Below are positions 3,049 through 48,558 of a stretch of 64,000 bases of DNA, one piece after another. The stretch lies in NCBI GenBank assembly GCA_963847625.1, contig CAWKAR010000019.1:105335-169334 (forward strand), read 5' to 3'. The notes under the pieces are model-generated. The model did not search any database and had not been told where the DNA came from. It was given only the letters and a program-made list of their open reading frames with translations. The stretch comes from a candidate division FCPU426 bacterium (GTDB lineage Bacteria > Oederibacteriota > Muellerivitia > Muellerivitales > Muellerivitaceae). The position numbers and the translations under genes were made by a program. Numbering within the stretch: position 1 is the first letter of the stretch; each line of letters starts with the position of its first letter.

Positions 3049-3152
3049 TTGTCTAAACCCCAAAGCGTTTCTCCCTGTGGAGCCGCAATTATTTCAGGCT
3101 CCCCAAAAAAATATATCTTATAAGGGAATTCACACCTGTCCAAAACTATACC

Positions 3153-3250
3153 TAGCCACGGATATATGGGATTCCTGGGATTTAATAAACATAAATATTT
3201 AAAGTCTTTTGACTTTGGCCATCTGAATGCATCCCCTGAATCTGTGGCTA
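3153..3250. repeat. Dispersed palindromic element, copy C
   Basis: TAGCCACGGAT...ATCTGTGGCTA; left flank matches the flank of copy A, right flank matches the flank of copy B. Confidence 0.85.
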
Positions 3251-3352
3251 AGAACTTGGTTTTTACTTAACGCCTTTTACAAAAAAAATTCCTGATTTTA
3301 TTTATCTTTGTTTCAGGGAGTTAAGTAAGTAAATCTCTTTTATAATATTCCC

Positions 3353-4174: not shown

Positions 4175-4278
4175 GTCAATGGAATAGGAATGAAGAACAA
4201 AGGGGTCCCCGGATTCAACGATTTGCGAATCGATATGAATGGCTCCCTGCCGTTTGGACGAAATAGTCCATCCTCGCT

Positions 4279-4800
4279 TTATCTTCGCCCGGAGTCATCC
4301 TTTGATTTGGATACCCTGAATTTATAAGGCCCGATGATTTCTTGAAGCATTTCCAATTTGGGTCCTTCCATCCAGATACCACCGCACTTCTCACATTGAT
4401 CCAATTCCGTCTTCCCCAACTTCACGGTTTCCATCCGCTTGCCGCAAAAGGGGCAAATGAGAAATGGCGGCTTTTTGCGGGGCTCAAAAAACGGAGGCGT
4501 TTTGTGGTTACGCTCTTCCGTCCCGGTCTGTAATTCCTTCTTCCCCTGTGGCTGTAGCTTCATCATCACTTCACGGCGGATGCCCAATCCCTCGCACTCG
4601 GCGCAATGAAGCACCTCCTGTGTGTCCAGGGCGGCGGTATAAACCGAGATTTTGCAAATGGGACAGGAAACCGTCTTCGCCGAAACACTGGCCAATCCCC
4701 CGGTTTTAGCCAATGGCAGCCTGCAAGCGGGGCAGACACGTTCCGTACCGTTCAGGGGTTGGTCGCAGCGGGGGCATTTGGCTGAAGTGGGTTCAGGCAT
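4279..4800 (-). CDS. Multi-zinc-ribbon (zf-TFIIB-like) protein
   Basis: Six CxxC motifs (three zinc ribbons); LDQCEKCGGIWME; AAGGGGGA RBS before MPEP. Confidence 0.75.
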   Translation of the reverse strand: MPEPTSAKCPRCDQPLNGTERVCPACRLPLAKTGGLASVSAKTVSCPICKISVYTAALDTQEVLHCAECEGLGIRREVMMKLQPQGKKELQTGTEERNHKTPPFFEPRKKPPFLICPFCGKRMETVKLGKTELDQCEKCGGIWMEGPKLEMLQEIIGPYKFRVSKSKDDSGRR

Positions 4801-4832
4801 GGAAGTAGGTTCCCCCTTGTGATTGTTCCATT

Positions 4833-4985
4833 TCACTCATGGCGTTCCAGGTGACGGTGGTCGCTGGCTTTTTCCTTGCCTGCCATCATTCGGACCCCGC
4901 CACAACGGTGGCACACGAACTTCCGTTTTTTATGGGCCGAATGGGGCATCTCCCTCATCTTGACCTTGTATTGCCTGCAGAACAC
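4833..4985 (-). CDS. Small Zn-ribbon protein, copy 1 (50 aa, second Cys replaced by Tyr); absent from ORF track
   Basis: GTG start after GGGGAGG; MFCRQYKVKMREMPHSAHKKRKFVCHRCGGVRMMAGKEK; paralog of 14002-14151. Confidence 0.65.
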   Translation of the reverse strand: MFCRQYKVKMREMPHSAHKKRKFVCHRCGGVRMMAGKEKASDHRHLERHE

Positions 4986-5007
4986 GCGGCCTCCCCGCAT
5001 TGGACGA
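4978..5007 (+). repeat. 30-bp cassette-boundary site R2 (degenerate)
   Basis: cagaacacgcgg-cctccc-cgcattggacga. Confidence 0.55.
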
Positions 5008-5095
5008 GTTTAGAGCTTGTCTCCCCAAGTGGGAATTTCTAGATTCCCACTAAGTTCCCACTTTTTCCCACTTTTGAAACCCTCTGATCCTCGTT

Positions 5096-5125
5096 ACGGT
5101 ACGAGGATCTCCCCTCCGTGGACGG
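5096..5125 (+). repeat. 30-bp cassette-boundary site R3 (degenerate left arm)
   Basis: acggtacgagga-tctccc-ctccgtggacgg. Confidence 0.5.
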
Positions 5126-5210
5126 CCTTTCAATGAAGAAATTATGAGAACCCGGCTCATTGACTATCGGACGCACACGGAATAATATCCCTCAAACAAG
5201 GAGGACCCAT

Positions 5211-5531
5211 ATGCGTTGGTATCACTACGTTTCTTACTTTTTTGGCGGCGCTTTCCTCGCCAATGCGGTACCCCACTTCGTCAGCGGTATCACCGGCCAC
5301 CCCTTCCAAAGCCCTTTCGCCTCCCCGCCTGGGGTGGGATTGTCCTCCTCCACCGTAAACGTGCTGTGGGGCTCCTTCAACCTCGCCGTGGCCTATTGGT
5401 TCTTGTGCCGAGTCGGGACGTTCGACCTGCGCCGGACGGTGCCTGTCCTGGTGGCGGGGCTGGGGGCGTTACTAATGGCCGTGATGCTGGCCCATGCGTT
5501 TGGCCGTTTCTACGGAGGGCTTCTCCCTTAA
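5211..5531 (+). CDS. Small membrane protein
   Basis: AGGAGG RBS; three hydrophobic segments; FLANAVPHFVSGITGHPFQSPFA. Confidence 0.8.
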   Translation: MRWYHYVSYFFGGAFLANAVPHFVSGITGHPFQSPFASPPGVGLSSSTVNVLWGSFNLAVAYWFLCRVGTFDLRRTVPVLVAGLGALLMAVMLAHAFGRFYGGLLP

Positions 5532-5634
5532 TTCGTTAAAAGTTCCCCCTTCCCACTTCTCAAGTTCCTTTTTTCCAATCCCCCTGTCACTTGCTTAAAA
5601 AATAAGGAATCAGGCACCAATATCCATTATTCCT

Positions 5635-5664
5635 TTGTCCACCTTGGGTCCCCATCGTGGACAA
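5635..5664 (+). repeat. 30-bp cassette-boundary site R4
   Basis: ttgtccaccttg-ggtccc-catcgtggacaa, 9 nt from the stop at 5674. Confidence 0.9.
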
Positions 5665-5673
5665 CTAAAATCT

Positions 5674-6450
5674 TTATTCTTTTGAACGCCATATACGTGC
5701 TATCAGCAATTCCATTCCCCTGATTAGCCAAAATACACAAAAAATAATTAATAAATAAACGAGAAAGATATTTGCTGAAAGAAACGGCAATCCAAGAAAA
5801 CTTCCATACGCCTCAACAATATTATCGAAAGGTTTAAATTTCGGAGATTCATAAGAAGTTGCATCTTTTAATGTTTCATATTTTTCAGAACTAAAATCCT
5901 TTTTCTCACTGGCTCGAATTTCTAAATCAAGATCCTTATAAAGCCATTCACCTTTAAACCCTTTATCTTTTCTCCAACTCCATCTGGTCCTTGATATATC
6001 GAGATAAACACCATTTTTTTCTAGTCTAAACGGACCCTTGGAATTGGGATAATGTTTGCTAAATTCTTCTTCCGTGTTATTGCTGTAATATCCCAAAGGC
6101 CCATAAAAGTATCTGGTAAAAACTTTAGGATACTTCTTTGCGCGTTCATCCGAATAATTGAGAAGATCAAAACCTACACTTGTTTCCCCACCCTCAATAC
6201 GGAAAATTAAAATCTCTTTTGATTTTTTCTTTAAGAAAACTGTTTGTATCCAATCACGTAATAAATTATTACCATTTTTTTCAACAAGAAACGTACATGG
6301 TAGGTCGTATGACCGGCTGGGAACGGTAGCTTTTTCCAATTCACTGCGTTTATCAAAATAGTTAGTGGTATTTGTCGCAATCCATAAAACCACAAATAGA
6401 AAACTTATTAAAACAAAAGCCCTCATTGCCGTTCTGAGAAATTTCTTCAC
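5674..6450 (-). CDS. AT-rich hypothetical membrane protein
   Basis: 258-aa ORF with N- and C-terminal TM segments; GGAG RBS before GTG. Confidence 0.7.
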   Translation of the reverse strand: MKKFLRTAMRAFVLISFLFVVLWIATNTTNYFDKRSELEKATVPSRSYDLPCTFLVEKNGNNLLRDWIQTVFLKKKSKEILIFRIEGGETSVGFDLLNYSDERAKKYPKVFTRYFYGPLGYYSNNTEEEFSKHYPNSKGPFRLEKNGVYLDISRTRWSWRKDKGFKGEWLYKDLDLEIRASEKKDFSSEKYETLKDATSYESPKFKPFDNIVEAYGSFLGLPFLSANIFLVYLLIIFCVFWLIRGMELLIARIWRSKE

Positions 6451-6553
6451 AATTACATCTCCAATTCAATAAAGCCGGTTTAAACATAAATAATTATGAA
6501 TACAAAAAAATGCCTTGCGGGTTTAACTCAAAATTTCGATACACAACCAACTA

Positions 6554-6583
6554 TCGTCCAATCAGGGTCCCCGTCGTGGACAA
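6554..6583 (+). repeat. 30-bp cassette-boundary site R5
   Basis: tcgtccaatcag-ggtccc-cgtcgtggacaa. Confidence 0.9.
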
Positions 6584-6673
6584 AGGAATAATGGTTAATG
6601 GTCTCTGCTCCACGGTGCGGAGAGTGGATCCTGACCCTGTATTTTCCGCATAGGGGCCTGCGGAACCTAGGGG

Positions 6674-7093
6674 CTAGGTTTTCCAGGGATTGATCAGGTG
6701 GATCCCAAGCCCTTGAAAATGCCGGGTATTGCGTGTGGCTAATGTAGCTTTGCAGGCTAAAGCGATCCCGGCGATCTGGAGATCTCGAATCTCAACCGGA
6801 CGCCCTATTTTTCTTTGTTGGGCCGCGATCGAGGCGGACGCCCGGGCCGCGGCAAGGTCAAATGGAAGGACCCGGCCTTCCAAATCCTCCTCCAAAGCTT
6901 GGTTAAAAAACTCCTCCAGCTGATGCCGCCTACGCCCCCCCGCCAGGTTCTCGATGCCAAACCGTATTTCAAATACCGTGATGGTCGTAGTCCAAACCGA
7001 TTCAACGGACTGGCGATCCAACCATGAAACGATCGCAGGAACCGGTTCCCGAAGCATCAATGTGGAAAGGATATTCGTATCGAGCAGGATCAT
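6674..7093 (-). CDS. vapC: VapC/FitB PIN-domain toxin
   Basis: MILLDTNILS...EIRFG...DLQIAGIA...LATRNTRHF...INPW. Confidence 0.93.
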   Translation of the reverse strand: MILLDTNILSTLMLREPVPAIVSWLDRQSVESVWTTTITVFEIRFGIENLAGGRRRHQLEEFFNQALEEDLEGRVLPFDLAAARASASIAAQQRKIGRPVEIRDLQIAGIALACKATLATRNTRHFQGLGIHLINPWKT

Positions 7094-7341
7094 GGGACCA
7101 GATCGGCGGGCTGGGCTTGTTGGCCCCCCAATTCGGGGATTTCCTGGGTCAGCCCTATCTTGGCAAACCGCGCCTTAAACCTGGCGCCCAATGGTGTGGG
7201 GACGCGGCCCCCATCCTTCCCTACCGCGTTTCTCAAGATATCCCGCACTTCTTCCTCCGTGCTGTGCCCATTCTTCCGGGCCCTTTGGCTCAGTTTCATC
7301 TTCACGCCGTCATCTAGATTCCGAACGATAATTTGGGCCAT
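7090..7341 (-). CDS. fitA: FitA/StbC-like ribbon-helix-helix antitoxin
   Basis: MAQIIVRNLDDGVKMKLSQRARKNGHSTEEEVRDIL; 4-nt overlap with the toxin. Confidence 0.9.
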   Translation of the reverse strand: MAQIIVRNLDDGVKMKLSQRARKNGHSTEEEVRDILRNAVGKDGGRVPTPLGARFKARFAKIGLTQEIPELGGQQAQPADLVP

Positions 7342-7368
7342 GGGTTCCCTCTGCGAAGTAGGGTTAAG

Positions 7369-7400
7369 TGATATGACGATATCATGATATCATGATATCA
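7369..7400. promoter_or_regulatory. Putative antitoxin operator (tandem TGATATCA palindromes)
   Basis: tgatatga-cgatatca-tgatatca-tgatatca just upstream of fitA; resembles the FitA half-site TGCTATCA. Confidence 0.6.
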
Positions 7401-7481
7401 ATTATTTGTTATTCCCGCAAGGGGTCCAAAAACCCCTTCATTCTATGCCCCGAAAAGGGGCTGCCCCCTTTCCGTTTTTAC

Positions 7482-7511
7482 CTGTCCACGATGGGTCCCC
7501 GCAGTGAACAA
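7482..7511 (+). repeat. 30-bp cassette-boundary site R6
   Basis: ctgtccacgatg-ggtccc-cgcagtgaacaa, 10 nt from the stop at 7522. Confidence 0.9.
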
Positions 7512-7521
7512 CTTTCATATT

Positions 7522-9291
7522 CTACTTCGTGTGTTTTTCAATCCAATCGGTTGTATTTTCCAGCACTTCCGGCGCAAATGTTCCAGGGTCATCAATCCAT
7601 TCCTCTGGATCGCCTGTAATGGTGTTTTGGAGAACGTGACTCAACCCCGGGAAGACTTTGGAAGTAAATTCGGGATTCTTCCCTTCCTTTAAAGCTTTTT
7701 CGATGGCTGGAAAATTAACGTCGGGGGGAACCATTAAATCTTTCTCACCGCTTAAAGCTAAAACAGGACAAATAACCTGTTCCAAGGCAGGCCTTGGATC
7801 GTATTTCTCCCAATGTTTGTAATAAGAAAATGGATAAGGATATTCAGCCCATTTCGGCAGTGTGGCTTGAAGTTTTATTAATTCTTTAGATTTGTATTTC
7901 TTCGCCATTTCTTCCTGGATGAACTTTCTTATTTTGGATTTGGCTTCATCTTCGTTCTTGGAGCTGACAACTTCATCCATAATTCGTTTATATATCCTTG
8001 TATTAAAAGCAATGAATTCGTCGCTACGCCTCTCCGTGTTCCAAAACCTTAGCCACTGAATAAGGTCTTGGCTTTTGCCATCCACACCGATTCCTCCCAT
8101 CAAGACGATAAAGGCAACATCCTTTGATCGCGACGCTACCAGGGGCGCACTATAACTCCCTTCGCTTTGGCCGATCACACCGGCTTTAAGGGGATTCACT
8201 TCTTTTCGATTCTTCAAATATTCAAAACCGGCAAGGGCGTCGTCGGCAAAATCCCCAACTGTGGCCTTATCGAAATCTCCCGAGGAGCTTCCCACCCCGC
8301 GTTTGTCGTAACGCAATACCGCGATGCCATGCCGTGTCAGGTAGTCCGAAAGAACAAGGTGGCTATGTGGCCAAATATAACCATCCCGGTTAGGTCTACC
8401 CGAACCAGTGATAAGTAATACCGCCGGGAAGGGTTCGCCATGCTTGGGAAGGGTCAGGGTTCCGGCCAAGGTGACACCGGCCTTTTCATTGGTAAAAGTA
8501 ACCTCTTCTTCCCGGTAAGGGAAAGGCCTTTTGGGCTCATAATTCGCCGGCTGTTGGACCACCTTCCGGTTAAACTCCACAGTGAAATCAAAAACCTTCT
8601 TTTCCCCGGCCTTCCATTCCCAGGTTTTATCGGTCGTTTCCTTGTGGGAGAGGGTGACATAGAATCGCTCTTTCCATTTCGAACTATAAACCGTCGCGTG
8701 AAGCCCTTGGGTCTTGAGCTGTACGGTTAAGTTCCCAAACGCGCGCGAAGGCCCCAGCCATAAAGGCCCGTCGGAATGCGCCAAATCAATTTCCTCGTCC
8801 AGGGGCTGAATCTCAGGCAGGGTCCCCGGGGTTGAGTCCAACTGGTATTTACTCCCCGCCCAGTCGTCGTATAAAAAATCTAATTGCGCCGCGACACGGA
8901 GGATTTCGACCGGCCCAGTGGGGATGAGTGTGTACCGGATATGAATTCCGGATTTCAGGACCTTAATCGAAGTTTTTAAGTTTGCCGATACATTATTCGG
9001 CAGGCTGGCCTTCACTTGGATATCGGGAGCTTTGCCGGTGATATCGAATGCTTGCCGGCCATTGAAGCACTGCCAGTCTTGAGATAAGTAAATCAATGGT
9101 TTTATATACATGACTTGCTTCATGTTTTCCAAAATGTTGATCGAGCCGTTGTCCAAAATTTGAACATGAAGGGGCTTATCATCAACGGTCATGGCGCTGT
9201 TGACGGAATCCGCCCACATAAGGCTGGGGAAAAATAGGATTGTCCCGAAAAACAATATTAAAACGTATGTGAATTTTTTATAACTTTTCAT
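7522..9291 (-). CDS. Secreted alpha/beta hydrolase with extra N-terminal domain
   Basis: Signal peptide; LAGTLTLP, LITGSG, RYDKRGVG, nucleophile GQSEG, GEKDLMV, GLSH. Confidence 0.88.
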   Translation of the reverse strand: MKSYKKFTYVLILFFGTILFFPSLMWADSVNSAMTVDDKPLHVQILDNGSINILENMKQVMYIKPLIYLSQDWQCFNGRQAFDITGKAPDIQVKASLPNNVSANLKTSIKVLKSGIHIRYTLIPTGPVEILRVAAQLDFLYDDWAGSKYQLDSTPGTLPEIQPLDEEIDLAHSDGPLWLGPSRAFGNLTVQLKTQGLHATVYSSKWKERFYVTLSHKETTDKTWEWKAGEKKVFDFTVEFNRKVVQQPANYEPKRPFPYREEEVTFTNEKAGVTLAGTLTLPKHGEPFPAVLLITGSGRPNRDGYIWPHSHLVLSDYLTRHGIAVLRYDKRGVGSSSGDFDKATVGDFADDALAGFEYLKNRKEVNPLKAGVIGQSEGSYSAPLVASRSKDVAFIVLMGGIGVDGKSQDLIQWLRFWNTERRSDEFIAFNTRIYKRIMDEVVSSKNEDEAKSKIRKFIQEEMAKKYKSKELIKLQATLPKWAEYPYPFSYYKHWEKYDPRPALEQVICPVLALSGEKDLMVPPDVNFPAIEKALKEGKNPEFTSKVFPGLSHVLQNTITGDPEEWIDDPGTFAPEVLENTTDWIEKHTK

Positions 9292-9326
9292 AAAGCCACC
9301 CCTTTACTGTCAGAAATTGATTGCTT

Positions 9327-9356
9327 TTGTCCACTCCGGCTCCCCGCCGTGGACAA
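9327..9356 (+). repeat. 30-bp cassette-boundary site R7
   Basis: ttgtccactccg-gctccc-cgccgtggacaa. Confidence 0.9.
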
Positions 9357-9375
9357 ATATTAGTACCGGCCATTT

Positions 9376-10395
9376 TTATGGGCTGAATTTTTCCACCCGA
9401 TTGTTGCCCGTATCCGAAACATAAATGTAACCAGCGCCATCCACCGCGATGAAGGTGGGAGCGTTGAAAAAACCGGGCGCGAGCCCATAGGTCCCGAATT
9501 GGGAAAGGTAGCGCCCCGAACTATCGAATACTTCCACCCGGTCATTGCCCGAATCCACCACATAGACCTTGGCGTTGTCCGGGCTGAGGGCGACGCCGAT
9601 GGGCCCGTTGAGTTGGCCGTTCCCCGCGCCTGTCCCGGTATTCCCGCCCAAATAGCCCAAGGAGACGCCGGTGGCGCTGAAAATTTCCACACAGTTGTAT
9701 CCACCGGTCGAGACGTAAAGGGTCGTGCCGGCGGAGTTCACCGCGATGTCCGGGGAGTTATAGAGGTCGCTATAGCACGACCATTGGGCCAGGTAGGTGC
9801 CCCCGCCGTTAAAGGCTTTCACCAGGTAATTGCCGGGATCCACCACATAAATGGTCGTGCCCGCCGAGTTCACCGCGATTCCCTCGGGCCCCCAATAGAA
9901 CTGTCCGTTCCCGGTCCCATAAGACCCCCACTGGCCTTCAAAGGCGCCTAAGCCGCTGAAGGCCTCCACGCGATAGTTGCCGTTGTCCGCCACATAAACC
10001 GTCGTGCCGGAGGAATTCAGGGCGATGCACTGGAAACCGTTACATCCAGAAAAATTCCCGGGCCCCGACCCATAGCCGCCCCACTGGGTAAGGTAGGCAC
10101 CGGAACCGTTGAGGACTTCCACCCGGCCGTTACCCTCATCCACCACGTAAAGGGTCGTGCCAGCCGAATTCACAGCGATACCCTGGGGATTGATGAACTG
10201 CCCATTGCCTGAACCCCGCGTGCCCCATTCGGCCAGATAATTGGAAGGTATGGCGGGTGTGTTGAAGGGACCTCCCGGTGACGTGTTCTTGGCGCAGGAG
10301 GAGAGTTCCAATGCCGTCCATCCCCCGCATAATAAGAGGAGCCCGGTGAATACCCGCATCATTTCATTTCCTTTCTTGAAGTGTTCCATATTCAA
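9376..10395 (-). CDS. NHL-repeat beta-propeller (lipo)protein
   Basis: Six repeats of GQF..P.GIAVNSAGTTLYVVD.GN.RV; overlaps the upstream gene. Confidence 0.9.
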   Translation of the reverse strand: MNMEHFKKGNEMMRVFTGLLLLCGGWTALELSSCAKNTSPGGPFNTPAIPSNYLAEWGTRGSGNGQFINPQGIAVNSAGTTLYVVDEGNGRVEVLNGSGAYLTQWGGYGSGPGNFSGCNGFQCIALNSSGTTVYVADNGNYRVEAFSGLGAFEGQWGSYGTGNGQFYWGPEGIAVNSAGTTIYVVDPGNYLVKAFNGGGTYLAQWSCYSDLYNSPDIAVNSAGTTLYVSTGGYNCVEIFSATGVSLGYLGGNTGTGAGNGQLNGPIGVALSPDNAKVYVVDSGNDRVEVFDSSGRYLSQFGTYGLAPGFFNAPTFIAVDGAGYIYVSDTGNNRVEKFSP

Positions 10396-12380
10396 TTAAA
10401 CCCAAAACGGATGCCCGCCAAAAGGGGGATATCCTGCCCGATGACGCCGTCGGCGAAGATAAAATTATATTTCCCCTCCACGAACAGGGAATCCAAGGGG
10501 TCAAAGGGCACTTCCAAACCCGCCCCCAGAGCCATGTCGAAGTTGCCCACTTGGACGGGGCCGAAAACGCCGCCCCAGGAGACTTCCACATCCAGCCCCG
10601 CGCCCGCCGACAGGTATGGCCTGATCCCCTTTTGAAGGAGCAGGTACCGGACCGTCGGAAGGAACAAGAGCTCGTGGTCCCCGATGGACCCCACGTAATT
10701 GGTGCCGGAATAATCGAAATCCTCCACGTCCAACTGGAGGGCCCAGCCGTCGTTGAATCCATAGCCGACGCTGAATTTCCCGCCGCTTCCCAGGCCATAG
10801 GCCGTTTGCCAATTTTGGGTTGGAAGGTCGATTCCCCCCGCCAGTTCCACGAATATATGCCCCGGGGCCGAAACCTCAAGTTGAGGCCCAAGATTTGGGG
10901 TGGTTTGGTCCCGGGATCCGGAGAAGTTGAATTTCAAACCCGTCTCTAAAACCGCATAACCGTTCTGATAGGGGTTGGTGAAATTACGGAGGTTGGACGC
11001 GTTATAGTCCTTCAGTTCAATGAATAGGTCCAAGGTTGGGTTCAAATATAAAGCCATGCCGGCCCCAAATTGCGCGGCATTATTCTCTCCATAAAAATCG
11101 GGGCCATCGGGGAATTCCAGCCCAAGCCCGCCGAACAGGTAAGGCTGGAATGGGTCGGAGATGACAAGGGTGTATTGAAGGTTCGCCAGGACCGCCCAAT
11201 CCCCCGGGAATCTTTCCAAATTGGTGTAAAAGGAAAAATGATTCAGAAAGTCGTATCCGGCCGCGATGGAAGTGGTATTGACCTGCATATCGTTGACCGT
11301 CGAATAATAGTCGCCCGAAGCTAAAGTGAATCCCAAACCCATTTTAATGAAAAAATTACCGTTGGACGGGGGCGTTCCGCTCTTGTTATCCCCGCCGTGA
11401 TCGCCCCCAAGGTCGAGGATCACCCCGGCGTTGATGGGATAATCGATGGCGATCACCTGTTTGTTCGGGTAAAAGTAGTTGGGATTACCCATGTAAAATT
11501 GGTTCTGGGCGAAGGATTCAAGAATAAAGTTGCCTTTCGCCTCGACGAATGTGCTCCAGCCCCCGCCCAGCTTTAACTGCGCACCCAGGCTTCCCTGTAA
11601 CAGGTGATCGGTATTGTAGAAACTATTATCAGCAAAGACACCGACACCGGCTCCCAAATAAGGCCTGAAGGGTCCGTCTCCGAACGCATAGCGGGCCGAG
11701 AAGGTCGTTTCTAAACACTTGACCTCGTAGTTGCGTCTATAGAAAGAATCATATTGTGATAAGAAATACATGGCTTCCGTCAACCAAAGGGACCAGTGGT
11801 CATCCCAGGCGTAACCGAAACCTAGTTCCCCTCCCAAACCCACCGTGCCGGGGTTTTTAAAGTTTTGACCGAAGAATTCCAAGCCTGGGCCCAGTTGGAA
11901 CTGAAAATTTTTAAAAGGATCGTTCGGGGCCTTCGGCGTGGGAGTCGGGACCGCCAAGTCCTCAAGGGTTCCATTCGGTTTCCGATCCGGGTCCAGGTCC
12001 GGCGGTGGCGGCATTTGGGCTTCAGCCTTTCCCTCAAAATAAGCGCCATCATCGTTTCTCGGCTTCCTCGGCTCCGGTGTTTTCAGCCAATCCACGAAGC
12101 TTTTCAACCGGGGATTGTCCCCGTTTAGTTTCAGGCTCTCTTGGCATTGCGCCAGGGCATCCTGGTTATCATTCATCTGGTATGCGCAATAACCCAGCAA
12201 TTGGTGGGCTTTCCAATTGCCGGGGCTCAACTGGATGGCCCGTTTCAGGTTTGTGACGGCGGCCGAATAGTCATTGCCGTAGTATTGGCTCAAAGCCAAA
12301 TTGAAATAGTCCCCGGCATCGGCCGCGAAAACATTTAAGGCCGATAGGTAGAAAAGCACCGCCCAAACGAACCTTCTCAT
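10392..12380 (-). CDS. TPR plus three tandem outer-membrane beta-barrel domains
   Basis: Signal peptide, TPRs, then three units containing RPYLGAGVG / QPYLFGGLG / RPYLSAGAG; terminal IRFGF. Confidence 0.75.
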   Translation of the reverse strand: MRRFVWAVLFYLSALNVFAADAGDYFNLALSQYYGNDYSAAVTNLKRAIQLSPGNWKAHQLLGYCAYQMNDNQDALAQCQESLKLNGDNPRLKSFVDWLKTPEPRKPRNDDGAYFEGKAEAQMPPPPDLDPDRKPNGTLEDLAVPTPTPKAPNDPFKNFQFQLGPGLEFFGQNFKNPGTVGLGGELGFGYAWDDHWSLWLTEAMYFLSQYDSFYRRNYEVKCLETTFSARYAFGDGPFRPYLGAGVGVFADNSFYNTDHLLQGSLGAQLKLGGGWSTFVEAKGNFILESFAQNQFYMGNPNYFYPNKQVIAIDYPINAGVILDLGGDHGGDNKSGTPPSNGNFFIKMGLGFTLASGDYYSTVNDMQVNTTSIAAGYDFLNHFSFYTNLERFPGDWAVLANLQYTLVISDPFQPYLFGGLGLEFPDGPDFYGENNAAQFGAGMALYLNPTLDLFIELKDYNASNLRNFTNPYQNGYAVLETGLKFNFSGSRDQTTPNLGPQLEVSAPGHIFVELAGGIDLPTQNWQTAYGLGSGGKFSVGYGFNDGWALQLDVEDFDYSGTNYVGSIGDHELLFLPTVRYLLLQKGIRPYLSAGAGLDVEVSWGGVFGPVQVGNFDMALGAGLEVPFDPLDSLFVEGKYNFIFADGVIGQDIPLLAGIRFGFN

Positions 12381-12428
12381 AATATTCTTCCCCTCAATAA
12401 CGAACTACGTTTTATGAGCTATTAATCT

Positions 12429-12458
12429 TTGTCCACTTTGGCTCCCCGTCGCGGACAG
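12429..12458 (+). repeat. 30-bp cassette-boundary site R8
   Basis: ttgtccactttg-gctccc-cgtcgcggacag, directly abutting the stop at 12459. Confidence 0.9.
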
Positions 12459-13448
12459 CTATTTTTTATGTTTCATCCAACGTTTCACCGAATTCACATT
12501 TTCATTATGGGCTAGGTCGCCGTTCAATTCTTTTATTCGATCTCTGCACAATTGCGTCACGACCGAATTTTCGATAACGACGTTATCTTTGACGCCCTTG
12601 GTTTTTACCATCTCCAGAAGTCGTACCCAGGCATCGCGGTAAAGCTCCCAACCCTTCTGGTCTTCTTCTAAACCGGGATCATACTTTGGATAATTTGAAA
12701 ACCCCTTATTTTGGGTTTCGAACAATTCTTTTTCTTCTATAATCTTTTTAAACGCGGTCTGGAGAGATTTATTCAAATTTCTTCTCGCTTCTTGGCATTC
12801 CTTTAAGGTCGACACATTCAATTGACCCTTCAGCAACCAATCTTTGATCTTGTCTTGATGAAGGGCTTTCCCATAAGTATGTCTCGGGTGTTCATCGCTT
12901 ATACCCAAGATATCTTCTTCCATAAGGTCCAATACAGCCCTTTTTCCATCGTTTATCTCCAGAGTTTCGGCTTCATCTTCTATGATTTTCAATTCTTTCT
13001 TCTCCATGTCATTCAAGCGGCCCTTGAAAGTTTCGACCTTTCGGTTTAATTCCTGGTCATTGAGATCCGTTTGGATGTCGTTGCAATCATATGATTCATC
13101 ACTATCCATGGGGATGTCGTTACAGGTCAATCGAGGATAGATTTTTTGGGGGGTTTTCAACCTCTCCTGAATGATCTTCTCTAGATTTTGGTATCCAACT
13201 CCCCAATAGTTGAGCTTATTGTCTGCCTCTTCGAATAGTTCCTGGGCTTTTTGGGGATTTCTTTCCACGCCATCCCCGTTGAGATACATCAAGATGAGGA
13301 AGGGGTAACCTTTCCCAATATCATCTTTTTGGAAACAATCCATGGCTTTGGAATAATCAACAGGCACACCGATCCCGTAATAATATTTCAAACATTCCTT
13401 ATCCAGGGCTTGGAGTTTGGTCGTGACAAGAAAAAAGACCATTATCAA
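12459..13448 (-). CDS. Sel1-repeat / LprI (DUF1311)-like secreted protein
   Basis: YYYGIGVPVDYSKA and MYLNGDGVERNPQKA (Sel1); LEEDQKGWELYRDA...RDRIKEL (LprI-like). Confidence 0.75.
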   Translation of the reverse strand: MIMVFFLVTTKLQALDKECLKYYYGIGVPVDYSKAMDCFQKDDIGKGYPFLILMYLNGDGVERNPQKAQELFEEADNKLNYWGVGYQNLEKIIQERLKTPQKIYPRLTCNDIPMDSDESYDCNDIQTDLNDQELNRKVETFKGRLNDMEKKELKIIEDEAETLEINDGKRAVLDLMEEDILGISDEHPRHTYGKALHQDKIKDWLLKGQLNVSTLKECQEARRNLNKSLQTAFKKIIEEKELFETQNKGFSNYPKYDPGLEEDQKGWELYRDAWVRLLEMVKTKGVKDNVVIENSVVTQLCRDRIKELNGDLAHNENVNSVKRWMKHKK

Positions 13449-13482
13449 AAAAAGTGTTATTTTGGATTTCGTAAATAGCTCC

Positions 13483-13512
13483 TTGACTACGAAGGCTCCC
13501 CGTCGTGGACAA
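13483..13512 (+). repeat. 30-bp cassette-boundary site R9
   Basis: ttgactacgaag-gctccc-cgtcgtggacaa. Confidence 0.9.
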
Positions 13513-13523
13513 ATATCCTAAGT

Positions 13524-13901
13524 TTAAAAAGTAAAGCGTTCCTTCAACCAGGGTGGGCTCTTTTCCGTCAGGCACTGGATCACAATGACATGTCCTTCAG
13601 GGTCTTCAAAAGATACAGCCTGTAAACCCAAATGGGAGTCCGTGGGGCCGGTGAACCGGATTCCTTTTTGCTTTAGACTTGCTACCAGAGCCGGGAGGTC
13701 ATCCGTGATGAAGGAAACCTGGGACTTGCCGGGTTGATGAACCGATGTATCGAAATCCACTCCAGGCCAACCCGAGTCAAAGACATTTAACCCGGCTGGT
13801 TCAGTTAGATTGAGTTTGAAGCCCAATACTTCCTCATAGAATTTCCTGCTCCCGCTTGGATCTTTTGTATAAAGCTCAACCTCATGAAGTTTGAAACGCA
13901 T
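13524..13901 (-). CDS. VOC/glyoxalase family protein
   Basis: LHEVELYTKD...SRKFYEEVLG...FEDPEGH; GGAGG RBS. Confidence 0.9.
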   Translation of the reverse strand: MRFKLHEVELYTKDPSGSRKFYEEVLGFKLNLTEPAGLNVFDSGWPGVDFDTSVHQPGKSQVSFITDDLPALVASLKQKGIRFTGPTDSHLGLQAVSFEDPEGHVIVIQCLTEKSPPWLKERFTF

Positions 13902-13956
13902 ATTCCCTCCTCACAAATACTTTCCCATTCATGAAAGCTTCTTCCCGACTTTTTCC

Positions 13957-13986
13957 TTGTCCACGATGACTCTCCGCCGCGGACAA
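13957..13986 (+). repeat. 30-bp cassette-boundary site R10
   Basis: ttgtccacgatg-actctc-cgccgcggacaa. Confidence 0.88.
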
Positions 13987-14001
13987 CTTTAAAACCTTAT
14001 A

Positions 14002-14151
14002 TCAAACCCGCTCCCGGCGACGCCGGTCGCCGGCTTTTTCTTTGCCAGCCATCATGCGGGCTCCCCCGCACCGGGGGCACACGAACTTTCTTTGTTTATG
14101 GGCCGAATGGGCCATTTCCCTCATCTTGATCTTGCATCGCCTGCAGAACAT
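14002..14151 (-). CDS. Small Zn-ribbon protein, copy 2 (49 aa); absent from ORF track
   Basis: MFCRRCKIKMREMAHSAHKQRKFVCPRCGGARMMAGKEKAGDRRRRERV; RBS GGTGAGG lies inside site R11. Confidence 0.7.
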   Translation of the reverse strand: MFCRRCKIKMREMAHSAHKQRKFVCPRCGGARMMAGKEKAGDRRRRERV

Positions 14152-14173
14152 ACCCTCACCCCGTCGCGGATAA
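14144..14173 (+). repeat. 30-bp cassette-boundary site R11
   Basis: cagaacataccc-tcaccc-cgtcgcggataa, 1 nt from the stop at 14175. Confidence 0.7.
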
Positions 14174-14174
14174 C

Positions 14175-14603
14175 CTATATTTTCTTTTTCAAATAATATC
14201 TCACATGCCGTTTTTGAAAAGGTGCCAGTTGCCCGAAAAGACGATATCCCTGTTTTTTATAAAATCCCGGGGCTTGGAAACTAAAAGTGCTTAAATAAAC
14301 CTGCTTACAGCCCTTTTTTTTTGCTATAGCTTCCGCTTTGCGAAGAAGCCGTTTTCCTAATCCTTGGCCACGATATTTTCGATCGACACATAGGATATCC
14401 ACACAAAGCCATCCCAAATAGGTATATCCGGTCACCCCCCCTACGAGCATTCCCTTTCCGTTTTTGGCCTCAAGGCCAACTGCCTTCCAATTTGAAATCC
14501 CGCTTTTTTTACTATTGAAAGGGCTGATTTTGCTGATGAGCTTATTTCGTAATTCCGTATATTTCCGGGGGCCAACTTGAATGATGGCGGAGGATGGCTT
14601 CAA
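14175..14603 (-). CDS. GNAT family N-acetyltransferase
   Basis: LCVDRKYRGQGLGKRLL; STFSFQAPGFYKKQGY. Confidence 0.92.
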   Translation of the reverse strand: MKPSSAIIQVGPRKYTELRNKLISKISPFNSKKSGISNWKAVGLEAKNGKGMLVGGVTGYTYLGWLCVDILCVDRKYRGQGLGKRLLRKAEAIAKKKGCKQVYLSTFSFQAPGFYKKQGYRLFGQLAPFQKRHVRYYLKKKI

Positions 14604-14691: not shown

Positions 14692-16764
14692 TTATTTAAC
14701 GCCTGAACTTTTCTTGGCTTTTTCAAAATCGTCCTTGGACCAGACTTCCGCCACCCAATGGTTTCCGATTTTCCTGAAGGCTTTTTTGGCGTCCTTGCCC
14801 TTTTTGTTCTGGTAATCCAGCCAGGCCAGGCGGTTCCAAATATCCCAATTGTGGGGGTCCAGTTTTAAAAGCGTCTGGTAGGCTTTCACCCGTTCCTTGA
14901 ACACCTTCGGTTTTTTCACGAATTCCTTCTTTTCGGAATCCTTGGAAAGCCCGTTTTGGGCCGTGTCGGAGGAGGCCAAAACCACGTAAGGATAAAGGGC
15001 CCTTAATTCCTTGTCTTTCCCGGAAATCTTCTTGGCCAAATCCAGGACAGGTTTTGTTTTTCCCGCCAGCGCCGCCCAGGCCAGATAGTTTTTCCACTCG
15101 CCGAGATCTCCCGGCGATGCGGTCAGGTAATTCCCGTAGCTCTTGGCGAAATCTTTCCAATAGGGCGAATTTTTCACTTTCTCCCGCGTCTCTTTCCGCC
15201 ATTGAGCCAGTCCCGCCTCCGACTGTTCCAAGCAAAGCACGTGGAAATCAGCGGCGCATGGAATGAAAAACAAGGCGGGAAACCTTTTGTTGAACTTTCG
15301 GGCGAACTCGAACATTTCCTTCAAGGAGCCGTTCCATTTCGGATTGAGGTAATCCATGTAAACGGTGTAAGCCTCATAATCGTTGGGATCCAGCCGCAGG
15401 ACTTTTCCGAAGTCATCTTTCATGGTTTCCTTGGCCAGTTCCGCCGCGTTGCCGTAGGCCACCAGTTGGCCCCAGGCCCTTCCGTAATGCGGGGTCAGGT
15501 CGACAGCCTTCTGGGCGTATTTCAAACTCTCCTCGACACGCTTTTTAAAAAGTTTCAACGCCTTCGGCGGGACGTCCCTGGTCCAATCAGTGCCCCGAGC
15601 CTCCCAGGCCAAGGAAAGCGTCAGTTGGGCCAGTTGAATCCAGGCGTTGGGGTTTTCCGGATGCGATTGGGTCCAGTTTTTCAACAGCGTGACGGCTTCA
15701 TCGTTATAGCCTTTGCCCTCCAAGGAGTAGGCGGCATAACGGTACCAATCGGGATTGTCGTTGTCCCTTTGCAACTCCTCCAGGGACAGTTTCAGGGCTT
15801 CGTCGTACTTTTTCAGCGCGTAAAGCTCGTAAACGTAGTCGAACTTGTAAAAGGAGTTATCCGGGTATTTCCGGACGAGCGGTTCGATCATGTCCAGATG
15901 GTTGGTCCGCTCCCGGAAGTCCGAAATTCCAAGCCAACGGTCGACCAAATAGTGGCACTTGGAGTTCTTGGCGAGGATATTGTCCCACTGGTTCACTAAT
16001 GAATATCCGCCCTGCCGGATCAGGCTTTCCAGGAAGGCTGTGCGTTCCAAATCCTTGTCGTTTAAGAACACGGGGCGCTTCAAGAAAGCCGCCTGTCGCG
16101 CGTTGGGTTTGAACCCAACCCAGTCATGGAGGCGGGAAGCCATCCAGCCCGGCGCCGAATGAAGCTGATTGGCCGTGAATTTTTTCTTGTATTTTTTCAG
16201 TGGATGGGAGCCGGTAAAACTCAAAGTGATGGTGTAACCCGTTTTCGCCCGGACCAAGGTTCCACTCGCGTTATCCGGGGTCGCGAACATGTAAGCCAGT
16301 TGTTTGGAAAATTGCTCGTGATATTGCCCGAGCGCCGAGTCGAACAGCCTGAAGTTCTGGAAAAGGGTGCCGGCGTTGGGCAGGTCAAAAATAGATTCAG
16401 GAAGGTAGGTCGCCTGCTCCATGGCCAAGTAACTCAGAAAACTTCCCAGGGCGTTAATCCGGCCCATTTTGTCCTTGAGGGGGAAAATCAAGGGGCAATG
16501 CGGGAGGGTTTGCCCTTTAACCCGGATGTCTTCGATCATATTGATTATTTCTTGGCTGGGGCGCTGACCCTCGGGCGCGGCTTCTTCTTGCTTCTTTTTT
16601 ACCAGTTCCCTCTCACGAATGGCCTGATCCTTTTCCCTGGCGGATTTCAAAATTCTGGCCGCTTTTTTCTCGATTAGAACTTGCTTTTGATGGATGTAAC
16701 CAAGCTCGGCGGCTATAACGATGGCGCCAATTCCCACGGCGATAAAAATGAGTTTCCAATCCAT
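14692..16764 (-). CDS. Membrane-anchored TPR / DUF4034-like protein
   Basis: N-terminal TM; TPR helices; AWEARGTDW and PKWNGSLKEM motifs. Confidence 0.7.
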   Translation of the reverse strand: MDWKLIFIAVGIGAIVIAAELGYIHQKQVLIEKKAARILKSAREKDQAIRERELVKKKQEEAAPEGQRPSQEIINMIEDIRVKGQTLPHCPLIFPLKDKMGRINALGSFLSYLAMEQATYLPESIFDLPNAGTLFQNFRLFDSALGQYHEQFSKQLAYMFATPDNASGTLVRAKTGYTITLSFTGSHPLKKYKKKFTANQLHSAPGWMASRLHDWVGFKPNARQAAFLKRPVFLNDKDLERTAFLESLIRQGGYSLVNQWDNILAKNSKCHYLVDRWLGISDFRERTNHLDMIEPLVRKYPDNSFYKFDYVYELYALKKYDEALKLSLEELQRDNDNPDWYRYAAYSLEGKGYNDEAVTLLKNWTQSHPENPNAWIQLAQLTLSLAWEARGTDWTRDVPPKALKLFKKRVEESLKYAQKAVDLTPHYGRAWGQLVAYGNAAELAKETMKDDFGKVLRLDPNDYEAYTVYMDYLNPKWNGSLKEMFEFARKFNKRFPALFFIPCAADFHVLCLEQSEAGLAQWRKETREKVKNSPYWKDFAKSYGNYLTASPGDLGEWKNYLAWAALAGKTKPVLDLAKKISGKDKELRALYPYVVLASSDTAQNGLSKDSEKKEFVKKPKVFKERVKAYQTLLKLDPHNWDIWNRLAWLDYQNKKGKDAKKAFRKIGNHWVAEVWSKDDFEKAKKSSGVK

Positions 16765-18793: not shown

Positions 18794-19276
18794 CTATTTC
18801 ACGATGGTGAATTCTCGCGAATACGCTTTCTGCGGTTTTTCGGCTCCTGAAAAAAAGGAATAATTTTTATAATAGGTAGCGATAAATTTAAATCGCCCTA
18901 TGGGCATGGGTCCCATCTTTATTTTTTTCTTGGGAATATTTTTAGTCTTATTCGGATCCGGCGGCCAGGTGATAGTTCTAACTTCAGCGGGTTTTAATTT
19001 GTGAACCATGACTGTTTTAATGAGATCTGGCCCTTCAATATCAAAAGGCCCAATGGAATCCCATTTGCCATCCGAATACTTCATGGCTTCCACCCAATAG
19101 CCCATTACCGCGGGTGAAGTATTTGTAATTTGAAAAGTTATTCTTTTTTCTGCCGATTGATAGGTATTTTTTATTCCCGAGAATTGAATGGGCGGCGGTT
19201 CCTTTTTGGCGAACCCGCAGAAAACCATAAAGAGAATAATGAGCGGAATATATTTTCTGACGGTGAATTGGCGCAT
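18794..19276 (-). CDS. Hypothetical secreted Ig-like protein
   Basis: GGAAGG RBS before MRQF; signal-like segment; ITFQITNTS. Confidence 0.6.
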   Translation of the reverse strand: MRQFTVRKYIPLIILFMVFCGFAKKEPPPIQFSGIKNTYQSAEKRITFQITNTSPAVMGYWVEAMKYSDGKWDSIGPFDIEGPDLIKTVMVHKLKPAEVRTITWPPDPNKTKNIPKKKIKMGPMPIGRFKFIATYYKNYSFFSGAEKPQKAYSREFTIVK

Positions 19277-19467
19277 GACAGCCTTCCATGAAGCATTTAA
19301 GGAGACTGGTATTGTACCGATTACCGAATTTTTTTCTTTTATGAAAATCGGCATATACTCCAAGGAGATTATCATTTATCCGGAGTCAAGAAGACAGATC
19401 CGGCATGGAAACGCGGGGCTGGCTGTATAATAATCAGCAATTTATCCGGCTGATTTAAGGAGAATTC

Positions 19468-23231: not shown

Positions 23232-23508
23232 TTCTCAATCCCGTAACGGGCCAGACGGTACCTTTCCTGTCCTCGGACAGCAACGGCGCCTATAGCACCA
23301 GCAACTGCGGAGGCGCCCTTTTCTTTATCTATACATTCCCATAACCAGGACCGGTTTGATCCTAGAAGACTTTAGGCCGGCCAACTTTGTCCCTCGGCTA
23401 TCCGGTAAATTCCGGTCAAAAGGGTGATTTAAACATTTTTTGGAATAGTTTATCCTCACGAGGACACTATATAATGTTAAACATCCTATCGATTTCAAGG
23501 GGGCTTTT

Positions 23509-48376: not shown

Positions 48377-48434
48377 GGGACACCTGGTGAAGAAGTTGCG
48401 TACTTTACATTAAAGATACTCAAAATAAAACTTT

Positions 48435-48530: not shown

Positions 48531-48558
48531 AGACGATGGTTTTTTCTTTACATTTTTT

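Follow-up and report, generated by a model that had tools for sequence, protein, structure and literature searches.

Polar arrays of exchangeable gene cassettes bounded by a 30-bp palindromic site that is linked to a truncated serine recombinase gene

The window analyzed here is a 64,000-nt stretch of DNA from a candidate division FCPU426 bacterium. Near its left end, genes on the minus strand alternate with short sites on the plus strand. The features are listed below, with PWM scores for the full sites where available and with reference to a genome of the same genus, G001.

4240..4269, plus strand: weak degenerate right-half-like site; GGCTCCCTGCCGTTTGGACGAA is similar to a right half carrying an insertion; recovered by no scan
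4279..5000, minus strand: two zinc-ribbon ORFs at the left array edge, 185 aa (4279-4836) and 55 aa (4833-5000)
4978..5007, plus strand: right half of a site next to an unrelated left half (...GCCTCCCCGCATTGGACGA), with 4 mismatches to the 19-nt core
5096..5125, plus strand: right-half-only site belonging to the recurrent GCGGTRCGAGGA-TCCCC class, read from the window sequence
5635..5664, plus strand: full 30-bp site (40.8)
5674..6450, minus strand: cassette gene, 258-aa orphan; no Pfam family and no G001 match
6554..6583, plus strand: full site with an AATCA-type left arm (39.1)
6674..7341, minus strand: cassette of VapC (PIN, 6674-7093) and a FitA-like RHH antitoxin (7090-7341), by Pfam
7482..7511, plus strand: full site (sequence and PWM scan); alternative junction found in a metagenome
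7522..9291, minus strand: cassette gene, 589-aa alpha/beta hydrolase, by Pfam
9327..9356, plus strand: full site (42.5)
9376..12380, minus strand: two-gene cassette, NHL beta-propeller (9376-10395) and TPR protein (10392-12380), by Pfam
12429..12458, plus strand: full site (41.2)
12459..13448, minus strand: cassette gene, Sel1/LprI protein, by Pfam; its stop abuts the site
13483..13512, plus strand: full site (39.9)
13524..13901, minus strand: cassette gene, VOC/glyoxalase-fold protein, by Pfam
13957..13986, plus strand: full site, core variant GACTCTCC (39.2); G001 keeps a right-half remnant
14002..14151, minus strand: small cassette ORF, 49-aa CxxC...CxxC zinc ribbon, from its translation
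14144..14173, plus strand: degenerate right-half site overlapping the start of the 49-aa ORF; G001 keeps only CACCCCGTC
14175..14603, minus strand: GNAT acetyltransferase, by Pfam, the last cassette-like gene
14692..16764, minus strand: flanking 690-aa TPR gene, by Pfam, outside the array; 72% identical ortholog in G001

A sequence-only reading of this DNA had proposed seven co-oriented 30-bp sites, and a reading of the window sequence found all seven where it had placed them. An unguided repeat search also recovered the site family, as repeats D9 (6 copies) and D15 (5 copies). They all fit the pattern TTGTCCAC-NNNN-GG[G/C]TCCCCG[T/C]CGTGGACAA. The consensus proposed earlier describes a real family, but its literal form, with ≤3 mismatches allowed, recovers only two of the seven (5635 and 13483), because the left inner arm is variable; 100 shuffled windows gave no match to it. 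A table of 266 sites bore out the inverted arms and shifted their boundary, so that the proposed 12-6-12 architecture with an asymmetric 6-bp spacer is better described as a 14-2-14 palindrome, TTGTCCACGACGGG-TC-CCCGTCGTGGACAA, with symmetry reaching the central TC. This dinucleotide is non-palindromic and the site therefore has a direction. In the same table the right arm is better conserved than the left, and no covariation between arm positions was detected (Watson-Crick counts at expectation, mutual information ≤0.04). When folded, three of the seven window sites form good hairpins and four do no better than shuffles. Four further degenerate sites had been suggested at about 4240, 4978, 5096 and 14144. 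None of them is a full site: three retain only the right half (TCCCC...GGAC..) next to an unrelated left half, and the one at 4240 is weak. The GCGGTRCGAGGA-TCCCC left-half class recurs on contigs C3, C13, C33, C34 and C63. From the right end of a site to the next minus-strand stop codon, the ORF list gives 9, 90, 10, 19, 0, 11, 15 and 1 nt, of which the 90 nt belong to vapC and the 15 nt to the 49-aa zinc-ribbon ORF, and the site-to-site intervals range from 118 to 3102 bp; both sets of values had been given correctly.

The cargo named earlier was also correct according to Pfam (PIN/FitA-like antitoxin, alpha/beta hydrolase, NHL plus TPR, Sel1/LprI, VOC and GNAT). At the left edge, the 185-aa ORF matches Zn_ribbon_TFIIB, and a 155-nt repeat (D12) at the two zinc-ribbon ORFs has a second copy at 14009-14163. 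The cassette content of the window differs from that of G001. The NHL-TPR cassette is absent from G001, the VapC/antitoxin cassette has an 87% identical copy elsewhere in that genome (C4:681930) with homology confined to 6671-7458, and the hydrolase cassette has an 83% identical copy on a different G001 contig without sites, with homology only across 7522-9300. The 49-aa zinc ribbon is 84% identical in G001, where it adjoins the ortholog of the flanking TPR gene. The GNAT gene is missing from the orthologous place in G001, and its homolog in genome G002 is an in-array cassette.

A PWM scan of the genome gave 84 strand-hits, clustered on about 20 contigs, and the region described here would be one of about a dozen chromosomal cassette arrays in this genome. 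Each cassette would consist of one gene or a small operon with half a 30-bp site at each side. As the sequence-only reading had anticipated, the sites are clustered and co-oriented and not dispersed ahead of conserved genes. Across 41 genomes searched with an 18-mer core (≤1 mismatch), the core was present in 21 of the 24 other genomes of the family and in the one sister-family genome, and in none of 15 genomes elsewhere in the phylum, whereas a reversed-pattern control had no match in any of the 41. Within this uncultured soil/peat lineage, the site family occurs in a single order only. In a partly redundant set, 340 neighbouring site pairs less than 5 kb apart have the same orientation and 11 the opposite one, and the median site spacing is 798 bp. 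A gene stop adjoins the right arm at 116 of 126 sites. The in-array ORFs (n = 118) include PIN/VapB, BrnT/A, MazF, ParE/Phd, GNAT and WapI/SUFU/DUF4265 immunity proteins, and about half of them have no Pfam family. In addition, 32 of 306 right-half-anchored matches are right-half-only junctions with unrelated left halves, and these look like site-specific events at secondary sites.

The earlier reading had expected cassette content to vary among relatives and rearrangements to break at the sites, and both were observed. Near-identical cassettes occur in different arrays, genomes and genera, up to 99% identical and with different neighbours, so that the cassettes behave as modules. Genera g2 and g11 share an 858-bp cassette at 99.2% identity, with homology that stops at the sites, g2 and g3 share one of 1300 bp at 99.3%, and a further one of 781 bp reaches 96.8%. 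Breakpoints were mapped at 9 left and 7 right informative cassette boundaries. On the left, the only mismatched site positions are 1-14, 20 and, in a single case, 22; on the right they are 11, 12, 20, 24, 29 and 30. Therefore, the two arms of a site segregate with different cassettes. Homology breaks inside the site, whose left arm travels with one cassette while its right arm travels with the adjacent one. This brackets the exchange point to positions 12-20, and it is not placed on the TC itself because the invariant core offers no markers. Position 20 differs at five of the nine left boundaries, even between 99% identical cassettes, which a simple central cut does not predict. A peat-metagenome contig (X1) provides an alternative junction at the window's site 7482: it matches 7260-7500, to position 19 of the site, beyond which its right arm and flank are different. 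No circular cassette contigs were found among 65 metagenome loci.

The sole recombinase gene that is physically tied to the site encodes a truncated serine recombinase, not a tyrosine recombinase as the earlier loxP/dif-like reading would have it. This candidate has 276-283 aa, contains PF00239 and PF07508 but not PF13408, and lacks the zinc ribbon and coiled coil. All short forms share an invariant YVRVSSKEQ and terminate within a few residues of one another, before the zinc ribbon of the long paralog. Across the catalytic and recombinase domains, the candidate shares 55-56% identity with a large serine recombinase encoded in the same genome. A database search delimits a discrete group of 19 clusters (275-283 aa, 70-81% identity). 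Short-type genes or 3' fragments occur at 10 loci in seven genomes, and at nine of these a co-oriented site lies 10-54 nt beyond the alignment end, although the loci are related by descent and thus do not represent ten independent events. At the tenth locus a left arm is followed by a 458-aa ORF and then by a right-arm-only site. The long paralog (507-570 aa) has a site at none of five loci. Some arrays have the short recombinase gene at their left end, oriented toward the array and closely followed by a site after its stop codon, and other array ends carry remnants, namely the last recombinase codons and the left arm GTGTTCCTTTTG. In the six genomes counted that carry the gene or a fragment of it, core matches number 24-91 each, whereas in the 25 that lack it the median is 4 and the highest count 35. 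The short recombinase is present in only 7 of the 32 genomes of the order; it was not found in the site-rich genomes G023 (35 matches), G022 (30), G006 (30) and G011 (28), nor in the 65 metagenome loci, which hold 209 sites. Assembly breaks at repeats may conceal copies; in G000, fragments of the gene lie at the ends of contigs C24 and C63.

The palindrome that reaches the central TC, the sites at all 10 assessable ends of short recombinase genes and the presence of this gene in the most site-rich genomes therefore point to chromosomal mobile-cassette arrays that are analogous to integrons but use a truncated serine recombinase, and we regard this as the probable explanation. The short serine recombinase is most likely the array enzyme, and we infer that it cuts at the central TC. 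It derives from a large serine recombinase, whose catalytic and "recombinase" domains it retains. Because all sites in an array point one way, recombination between two of them would excise the intervening DNA as a circle with one site; cassettes would thus move as circles, which could re-enter at any other site. An end-located recombinase gene with its site would be the counterpart of integron intI-attI. As no recombinase gene was found by Pfam within the window's array, consistent with the earlier proposal of a recombinase acting in trans, this array, as is the case for CALINs, would depend on a recombinase supplied in trans, namely the copy that the same genome carries on contig C61.

Alternatively, the sites might be dif-like targets of the single divergent Xer-type tyrosine recombinase of the clade, with cassettes resembling IMEX/pdif modules and a crossover in a 6-8-bp spacer. 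Canonical XerC/XerD reach 320-367 bits in the eight remaining families but are missing from the family and the sister family; one conserved 345-aa Xer-like gene is present in 23 of 24 family genomes and the one sister-family genome, that is, in the same clade as the site. A palindromic site would fit an Xer-like homodimer, the exchange at the site centre is compatible with one, and the right arm is conserved above the left, as in dif and pdif sites (PMC13141974). However, in 15 genomes the surroundings of the xer gene, out to about 2.5 kb, contain no site, none was found in G017 and G020 although both carry the gene, and the gene has no specific tie to the arrays, unlike that of the short serine recombinase. 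The three G004 sites occupy a low-GC island, GC skew does not switch there over 400 kb, and so they do not represent a terminus dif; the skew of the window's own contig is too noisy to interpret. Spacers of tyrosine-recombinase sites are not typically symmetric up to the central 2 bp, and the loxP/dif-like label originally given to the site is not supported in that form, given this symmetry, the missing canonical XerC/XerD and the linked serine recombinase. We consider the Xer explanation unlikely. We see still less room for the view that the palindromes are REP-like or structural self-spreading repeats, mere hot spots of homologous recombination with no dedicated enzyme. As such repeats would be, the sites are short extragenic palindromes at gene 3' ends, present in dozens of copies and conserved within the family, and the three good hairpins in the window would be in keeping. 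Yet the copies are clustered and strictly polar, the covariation that would maintain a hairpin is absent, IS200-type (RAYT) transposases do not track the sites (none in G019, with 91 sites, G018, G021 or G023), and the right-half-only junctions also speak against it; 30 bp is very short for homologous exchange, and still the breaks always fall inside the site. Least credible, at a very small probability, is that one of the 370-aa phage-type tyrosine integrases of the clade moves the cassettes, since this multi-copy family (seven intact in G000, copies in 20 of 24 family genomes) has some members 5-19 kb from arrays (G002:C2:1185612, G004:C1:1321819, G000:C3:95902) but none adjoining a site and most far from any array, is absent from the 65 metagenome loci, has copies in G029 and G033, both without the site, and belongs to a type that usually serves whole islands at tRNA genes.

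The cassette arrays share features with several known systems. The pdif modules of Acinetobacter plasmids, moved by XerC/XerD, are small, often carry toxin-antitoxin genes and are bounded by sites of about 28 bp, with one arm better conserved and exchange within the site, as here (PMC13141974). The pdif sites have distinct XerC and XerD arms with variable 6-bp spacers and alternate in orientation (C and D modules) on plasmids, whereas the present arrays are chromosomal, with direct repeats of one palindrome with an invariant core, in a clade that lacks canonical XerC/XerD. REP/BIME elements with RAYT (REPINs) are likewise short, family-specific extragenic palindromes past stop codons in many copies; in contrast to them, the sites described here have no link to an IS200-type gene and lie in polar arrays bounding exchangeable cassettes.

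Large serine recombinases, such as phage integrases and the CcrAB enzymes of SCC composite islands, use an inverted-repeat site with a central asymmetric dinucleotide, and repeated insertion at one kind of site produces arrays bounded by direct repeats, both as observed here. These enzymes contact the outer att arms and control direction through a zinc ribbon and a coiled coil. The short recombinase lacks both, and its presumed site is, accordingly, short, at 2 x 14 bp, with all sites alike and no attP/attB pair; moreover, the mobile units consist of single genes and carry no recombinase of their own.

Integrons differ in that attC has 57-141 nt, whereas the 30-bp site has no R/L boxes, conserved hairpin or covariation; exchange takes place at the foot of a folded strand in integrons and at the centre of a double-strand palindrome here; and cassette genes read away from the recombinase end in integrons and toward it here. 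A dozen arrays per genome is also unlike integrons. The tyrosine integrase IntI is absent (best TIGR02249 scores of 45 bits for this genome and 92.5 bits across the 41 genomes, cut-off 265), which, together with the lack of attC structure, upholds the earlier designation as a non-integron system. Integrons, above all sedentary chromosomal integrons and CALINs, nevertheless resemble these arrays in their co-oriented single-gene cassettes with one recombination site each, in their cargo of toxin-antitoxin pairs, GNAT, immunity proteins and orphans, in the terminal recombinase gene with its special first site that some arrays possess, and in having many recombinase-less arrays and cassettes common to distant hosts. 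The window's array, with no recombinase of its own, is CALIN-like.

The seven co-oriented 30-bp sites that the sequence-only reading had reported were all present on the plus strand when the window sequence was read at the respective start positions.

Full 30-bp sites in the window (start, strand, feature)
5635, plus strand, full 30-bp site
6554, plus strand, full 30-bp site
7482, plus strand, full 30-bp site
9327, plus strand, full 30-bp site
12429, plus strand, full 30-bp site
13483, plus strand, full 30-bp site
13957, plus strand, full 30-bp site

These sites share the pattern TTGTCCAC-NNNN-GG[G/C]TCCCCG[T/C]CGTGGACAA, and an unaided repeat search of the window recovered the same family (repeats D9 and D15). 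The literal consensus proposed earlier, searched with up to three mismatches, gave no matches in 100 shuffles; it held for two of the seven sites and failed for the other five, because the left inner arm is variable. Four further sites had been described as degenerate: those at 4978, 5096 and 14144 consist of the right half only and are not full sites, and the one at 4240 is weak. Every gene of the array lies on the minus strand, and according to the ORF list the stops of the array genes lie 0–19 nt (90 nt for vapC) away from a site's right end, as had been read from the sequence; the names assigned to the cassette cargo were borne out by Pfam. Two small CxxC...CxxC zinc-ribbon ORFs on the minus strand (14002–14151 and 4833–5000) lie on an 81%-identical 155-nt repeat. 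Both start within a degenerate right-half site, and one of the two is kept beside a TPR gene in the same-genus genome G001. Rfam and tRNA scans of window positions 1–20 kb yielded no match.

The window also harbors other repeats and elements. A short interspersed repeat (families D7/D18; 368–482, 555–760, 3130–3279, 19273–19356 and 48421–48558) has more than 40 matches of 70–94% identity scattered over G001 and resembles a small mobile repeat such as a MITE. An insertion sequence encoding a 326-aa ORF occurs twice (22174–23238 and 62953–63830), and contigs C13 (two), C21 and C3 carry further near-identical copies. Three to four copies of a 153-nt tandem repeat (48554–49041 and 49017–49465) adjoin a tRNA-Val/Cys/Gly cluster, and positions 32171–36786 are occupied by a tandem pair of ~2.47-kb paralogous segments that are 72–79% identical.

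For the analysis of site structure, 266 sites were gathered via their outer arms only. In this set, the variability of the inner left arm far exceeds that of the inner right arm, and the symmetry reaches the central TC, so that the site has a 14-2-14 organization in which the arms form one inverted repeat. The paired positions do not covary across the 266 sites (Watson-Crick counts are as expected, and mutual information does not exceed 0.04), and of the seven window sites, four show no folding advantage over shuffled versions. On reading the 30-bp sites, no attC boxes (GTTRRRY/RYYYAAC) were found. Judged from these sequence properties, the site is a double-strand site and not a hairpin.

The seven window sites were turned into a position matrix, with which the source genome (4.43 Mb, 63 contigs) was scanned; with palindromes counted twice, this gave 84 strand-hits clustered on about 20 contigs. 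The clustering that the earlier reading expected was thus seen in the source genome, and it was seen also in the arrays of family relatives. The distribution across the phylum was assessed with an 18-nt core, allowing at most one mismatch, in the 41 genomes of the phylum sample.

Genomes containing the 18-nt core
Remaining genomes of the source genome's family: 21 of 24
The sister family within the order: 1 of 1
Eight further families in the phylum: 0 of 15
Control with the reversed pattern: 0 of 41

Relaxing the search added one further site, in G024, and still none in G017 and G020. Viral, phage and plasmid collections contained no site, the plasmids giving only one weak 24-nt match. A conserved 'primary' site was untraceable across the low-copy genomes G024, G025 and G013.

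The arrays are strongly polar. Among neighboring sites from the arrays of eight genomes and 65 metagenome contigs, some of them redundant, 340 pairs have the same orientation versus 11 with opposite orientation, at a median spacing of 798 bp. A gene stop adjoins the conserved right arm at 116 of 126 sites (21 array regions, six genomes), and for the 439 sites with a left neighbor, the gene on that side points away from the site in 312 cases and toward it in 60, whereas in 67 the distance exceeds 300 nt. The 118 in-array ORFs of six genomes include PIN/VapB, BrnT/BrnA, MazF and ParE/Phd pairs, GNAT proteins, immunity proteins of the WapI, SUFU and DUF4265 types, as well as Hsp20, PilZ, GGDEF and HAD proteins; about half belong to no Pfam family. 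The flanks of 16 arrays are heterogeneous, consisting of unrelated chromosomal housekeeping genes with no neighbor in common. One cassette array, in G002 (L033:13062–14369), harbors a group II intron reverse transcriptase/maturase; group II introns are known inside integron arrays.

Cassette content, whose comparison between strains had been proposed, differs between the window and G001. The hydrolase cassette of the window (83% identical) and its TA cassette (87%) are both located elsewhere in G001, with homology confined to the segment between the sites, and the orphan, NHL-TPR, Sel1/LprI, VOC and GNAT cassettes are absent. The two flanks of the window's array are 81 kb apart in G001, so that there is no clean empty site for this array. 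Much closer matches were observed between genera: an 858-bp cassette is 99.2% identical between G002 and G022, and a 1300-bp stretch and a 781-bp cassette are 99.3% and 96.8% identical, respectively, between G002 and G019, in all three cases with different neighbors on both sides. As a yardstick, the conserved single-copy Xer-like recombinase protein is only 63–76% identical between the same genera. Therefore, these cassettes have been exchanged recently. No circular cassette contigs were detected among 65 metagenome loci; in the peat data, which comprise four sequencing runs, the window stretch is present only as low-depth short contigs, and parts of it without coverage are uninformative. We are highly confident that the sites are real and that they delimit cassettes swapped by site-specific events.

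Where within the site the exchange occurs was approached with a table of boundaries, that is, of the sites at both ends of cassette pairs at least 94% identical. At nine left boundaries, the mismatches fall at positions 1–14, at position 20 (five of nine) and, once, at position 22. At seven right boundaries, positions 1–10 are identical, and mismatches occur at positions 11, 12, 20, 24, 29 and 30. Therefore, the left arm goes with the left cassette and the right arm with the right cassette. From these alignments, the exchange falls within the invariant core, bracketed to positions 12–20; with no variation in this core, it is not placeable on the TC. One peat-metagenome contig matches the window through position 19 of site 7482, beyond which both the right arm and the flank are different. 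Half-site junctions are of two kinds: left-half-only junctions are rare (about 4–6, versus 32 right-half-only), one of them being conserved through position 18, and right-half-only junctions are conserved from position 15 on. Both the metagenome contig and the half-site junctions agree with an exchange in the core. The idea of a crossover placed off centre, toward the palindrome's right end, was dropped, as positions 24, 29 and 30 are unlinked to the left cassette. Across all arrays, the mirror positions 11 and 20, both in CpG, vary independently of both flanks and differ even between otherwise 99%-identical cassette copies; this variation may mark a hot spot of mutation or be a footprint of the way in which exchange takes place.

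A PF00239 search combined with a protein search in 32 genomes of the order revealed a short type of serine recombinase in seven genomes; it is intact or reduced to a 3' fragment, and the gene end is assessable at 10 loci. At nine of these loci, which are related by descent, a co-oriented site begins 10–54 nt past the alignment end, no more than about 35 nt beyond the stop. At the tenth (G018), the left arm occupies this place, followed by a 458-aa ORF and then a right-arm-only site. None of the five loci of a long paralog (507–570 aa) has a site. The last codons of the gene, together with the characteristic left arm (GTGTTCCTTTTG), also remain at other array ends where the gene itself is gone. 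The 276-aa short protein contains the resolvase and recombinase domains (PF00239, 80.7 bits; PF07508, 44.1 bits) and no PF13408 zinc ribbon; six aligned short forms end at one point, just ahead of the zinc ribbon of the paralog, and the catalytic YVRVSSKEQ is invariant across eight aligned sequences. In the database, 19 clusters of 275–283 aa and 70–81% identity form a discrete group, the next matches being at most 60% identical.

Serine recombinases in general cross over at a 2-bp overlap in the middle of an inverted repeat. Large serine integrases contact about the inner 13 bp of each half-site with the recombinase domain, and the outer part with the zinc ribbon. An enzyme reduced to the inner domain would be in keeping with a 14-2-14 site. 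Core matches number 24–91 in the six counted genomes that carry the gene or a fragment of it; in the 25 without, the median is 4 and the maximum 35. As related genomes are not independent, this is only a tendency. The short recombinase was not found in 25 of the 32 genomes of the order, four of which have 28–35 sites, nor in the 65 metagenome loci. This counts against its being the cassette enzyme, as do the shared descent of the linked loci, the variation at position 20, an exchange point that is bracketed more widely than the TC, and the lack of circles. The window likewise contains no such gene; the intact copy of the source genome is located on contig C61 (35485–36312), followed by an array of its own.

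The strongest competing candidate is a single divergent Xer-like recombinase, whose distribution coincides exactly with the site-bearing clade (23 of 24 genomes of the family and the one genome of the sister family), where canonical XerC/XerD are missing. However, no site lies in the neighborhood of this gene, and we consider it improbable that it is the cassette enzyme. It scores 146–161 bits, versus cut-offs of about 330 for canonical XerC/XerD, and no canonical pair was found in the family. The original interpretation of the site as a loxP/dif-like tyrosine-recombinase site with a 6-bp spacer is not supported in that form: the symmetry extends up to the central 2 bp, and canonical XerC/XerD were not found. 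In the source genome the Xer-like gene lies outside the window (G000:C60:99802–100836). The other families of the phylum keep the usual XerC/XerD pair, and one divergent gene in its place throughout the order gives the impression that this lineage has switched its chromosome-dimer system.

A 370-aa phage-type integrase family is multi-copy and never adjacent to a site. A 367-aa phage-type integrase (G002:C2:1185612–1186712) is 88–90% identical at the protein level in six other genera, far above the vertical marker (63–76%), which suggests that this element has spread recently between genera. The remaining candidates were rejected: IS200-type (RAYT) genes are distributed differently from the sites, PF01797 not being found in G018, G019, G021 and G023 (7–91 sites); a 690–809-aa ParB_N-like protein near four arrays has no homolog in the source genome and does not track the sites either; a chromosomal dif, which is single-copy and marks the replication terminus with its GC-skew switch, is at odds with dozens of copies per genome and with the lack of a GC-skew switch at the G004 sites over 400 kb; and IntI (TIGR02249) reaches at best 45 bits in the source genome versus a cut-off of 265. 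The GC skew of the source genome is too noisy to be of use, and its apparent change from plus to minus near the window's array rests on few spiky bins. With no IntI above the cut-off in any of the 41 genomes and no attC boxes, the earlier classification as a non-integron system was upheld.

A truncated serine recombinase is thus the probable cassette enzyme. In the mechanism that we propose, a large serine recombinase reduced to its catalytic and inner DNA-binding domains would recombine identical 30-bp double-strand sites at the central TC. Single-gene cassettes would thereby be kept in store, cut out and passed between the genera of a so far uncultured lineage of soil and peat, and most arrays would be served in trans. 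That these elements combine into a second, independently evolved kind of integron, with a truncated large serine recombinase acting at the central TC and mostly in trans, is the reading that we favor, if by a narrower measure than the identity of the enzyme.

The proposed parts, a 276-aa recombinase and a 30-bp site without attP/attB asymmetry, are small and directly testable, and the pair, if active, would be of interest to builders of recombinase tools. The cassettes provide a ready catalogue of accessory genes (toxin-antitoxin systems, immunity proteins, orphans) recently moved between genera. The sites should be invisible to searches of the IntegronFinder type, and therefore the cassette pools of poorly known phyla may be under-counted.

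A search of open-access papers and preprints retrieved neither an account of cassette arrays with a serine recombinase nor one of this site. These arrays differ from ordinary large-serine-recombinase elements, and the short enzyme has the resolvase and recombinase domains without the zinc ribbon and its embedded coiled coil. REP/RAYT systems (REPIN) have dispersed copies and a Y1 transposase (PF01797), whereas the sites described here are clustered and are not tracked by IS200-type genes. The pdif modules are described as plasmid-borne, with sites that alternate in orientation and have separate arms for XerC and for XerD (PMC13141974). In contrast to such alternating C and D modules, on which XerC/XerD act at arms flanking a 6-bp spacer, 340 of 351 neighbor pairs are direct here, and the arrays lie amid chromosomal housekeeping genes. 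There is a likeness to integrons, with co-oriented cassettes and one ORF or small operon per site, a likeness that bears on the way of working and not on membership. Integrons are the textbook device for stockpiling and trading single bacterial genes and are regarded as one invention, IntI plus attC. The attC site spans 57–141 nt, carries R''/L''...L'/R' boxes and is recombined as a folded single strand of conserved structure, whereas the site described here comprises 30 bp, lacks the boxes and has paired positions without covariation. Thus, the function is alike and the parts, with neither IntI nor attC, are not; if the proposed mechanism is true, integron logic has been built from unrelated parts, and gene-cassette platforms are a convergent solution.
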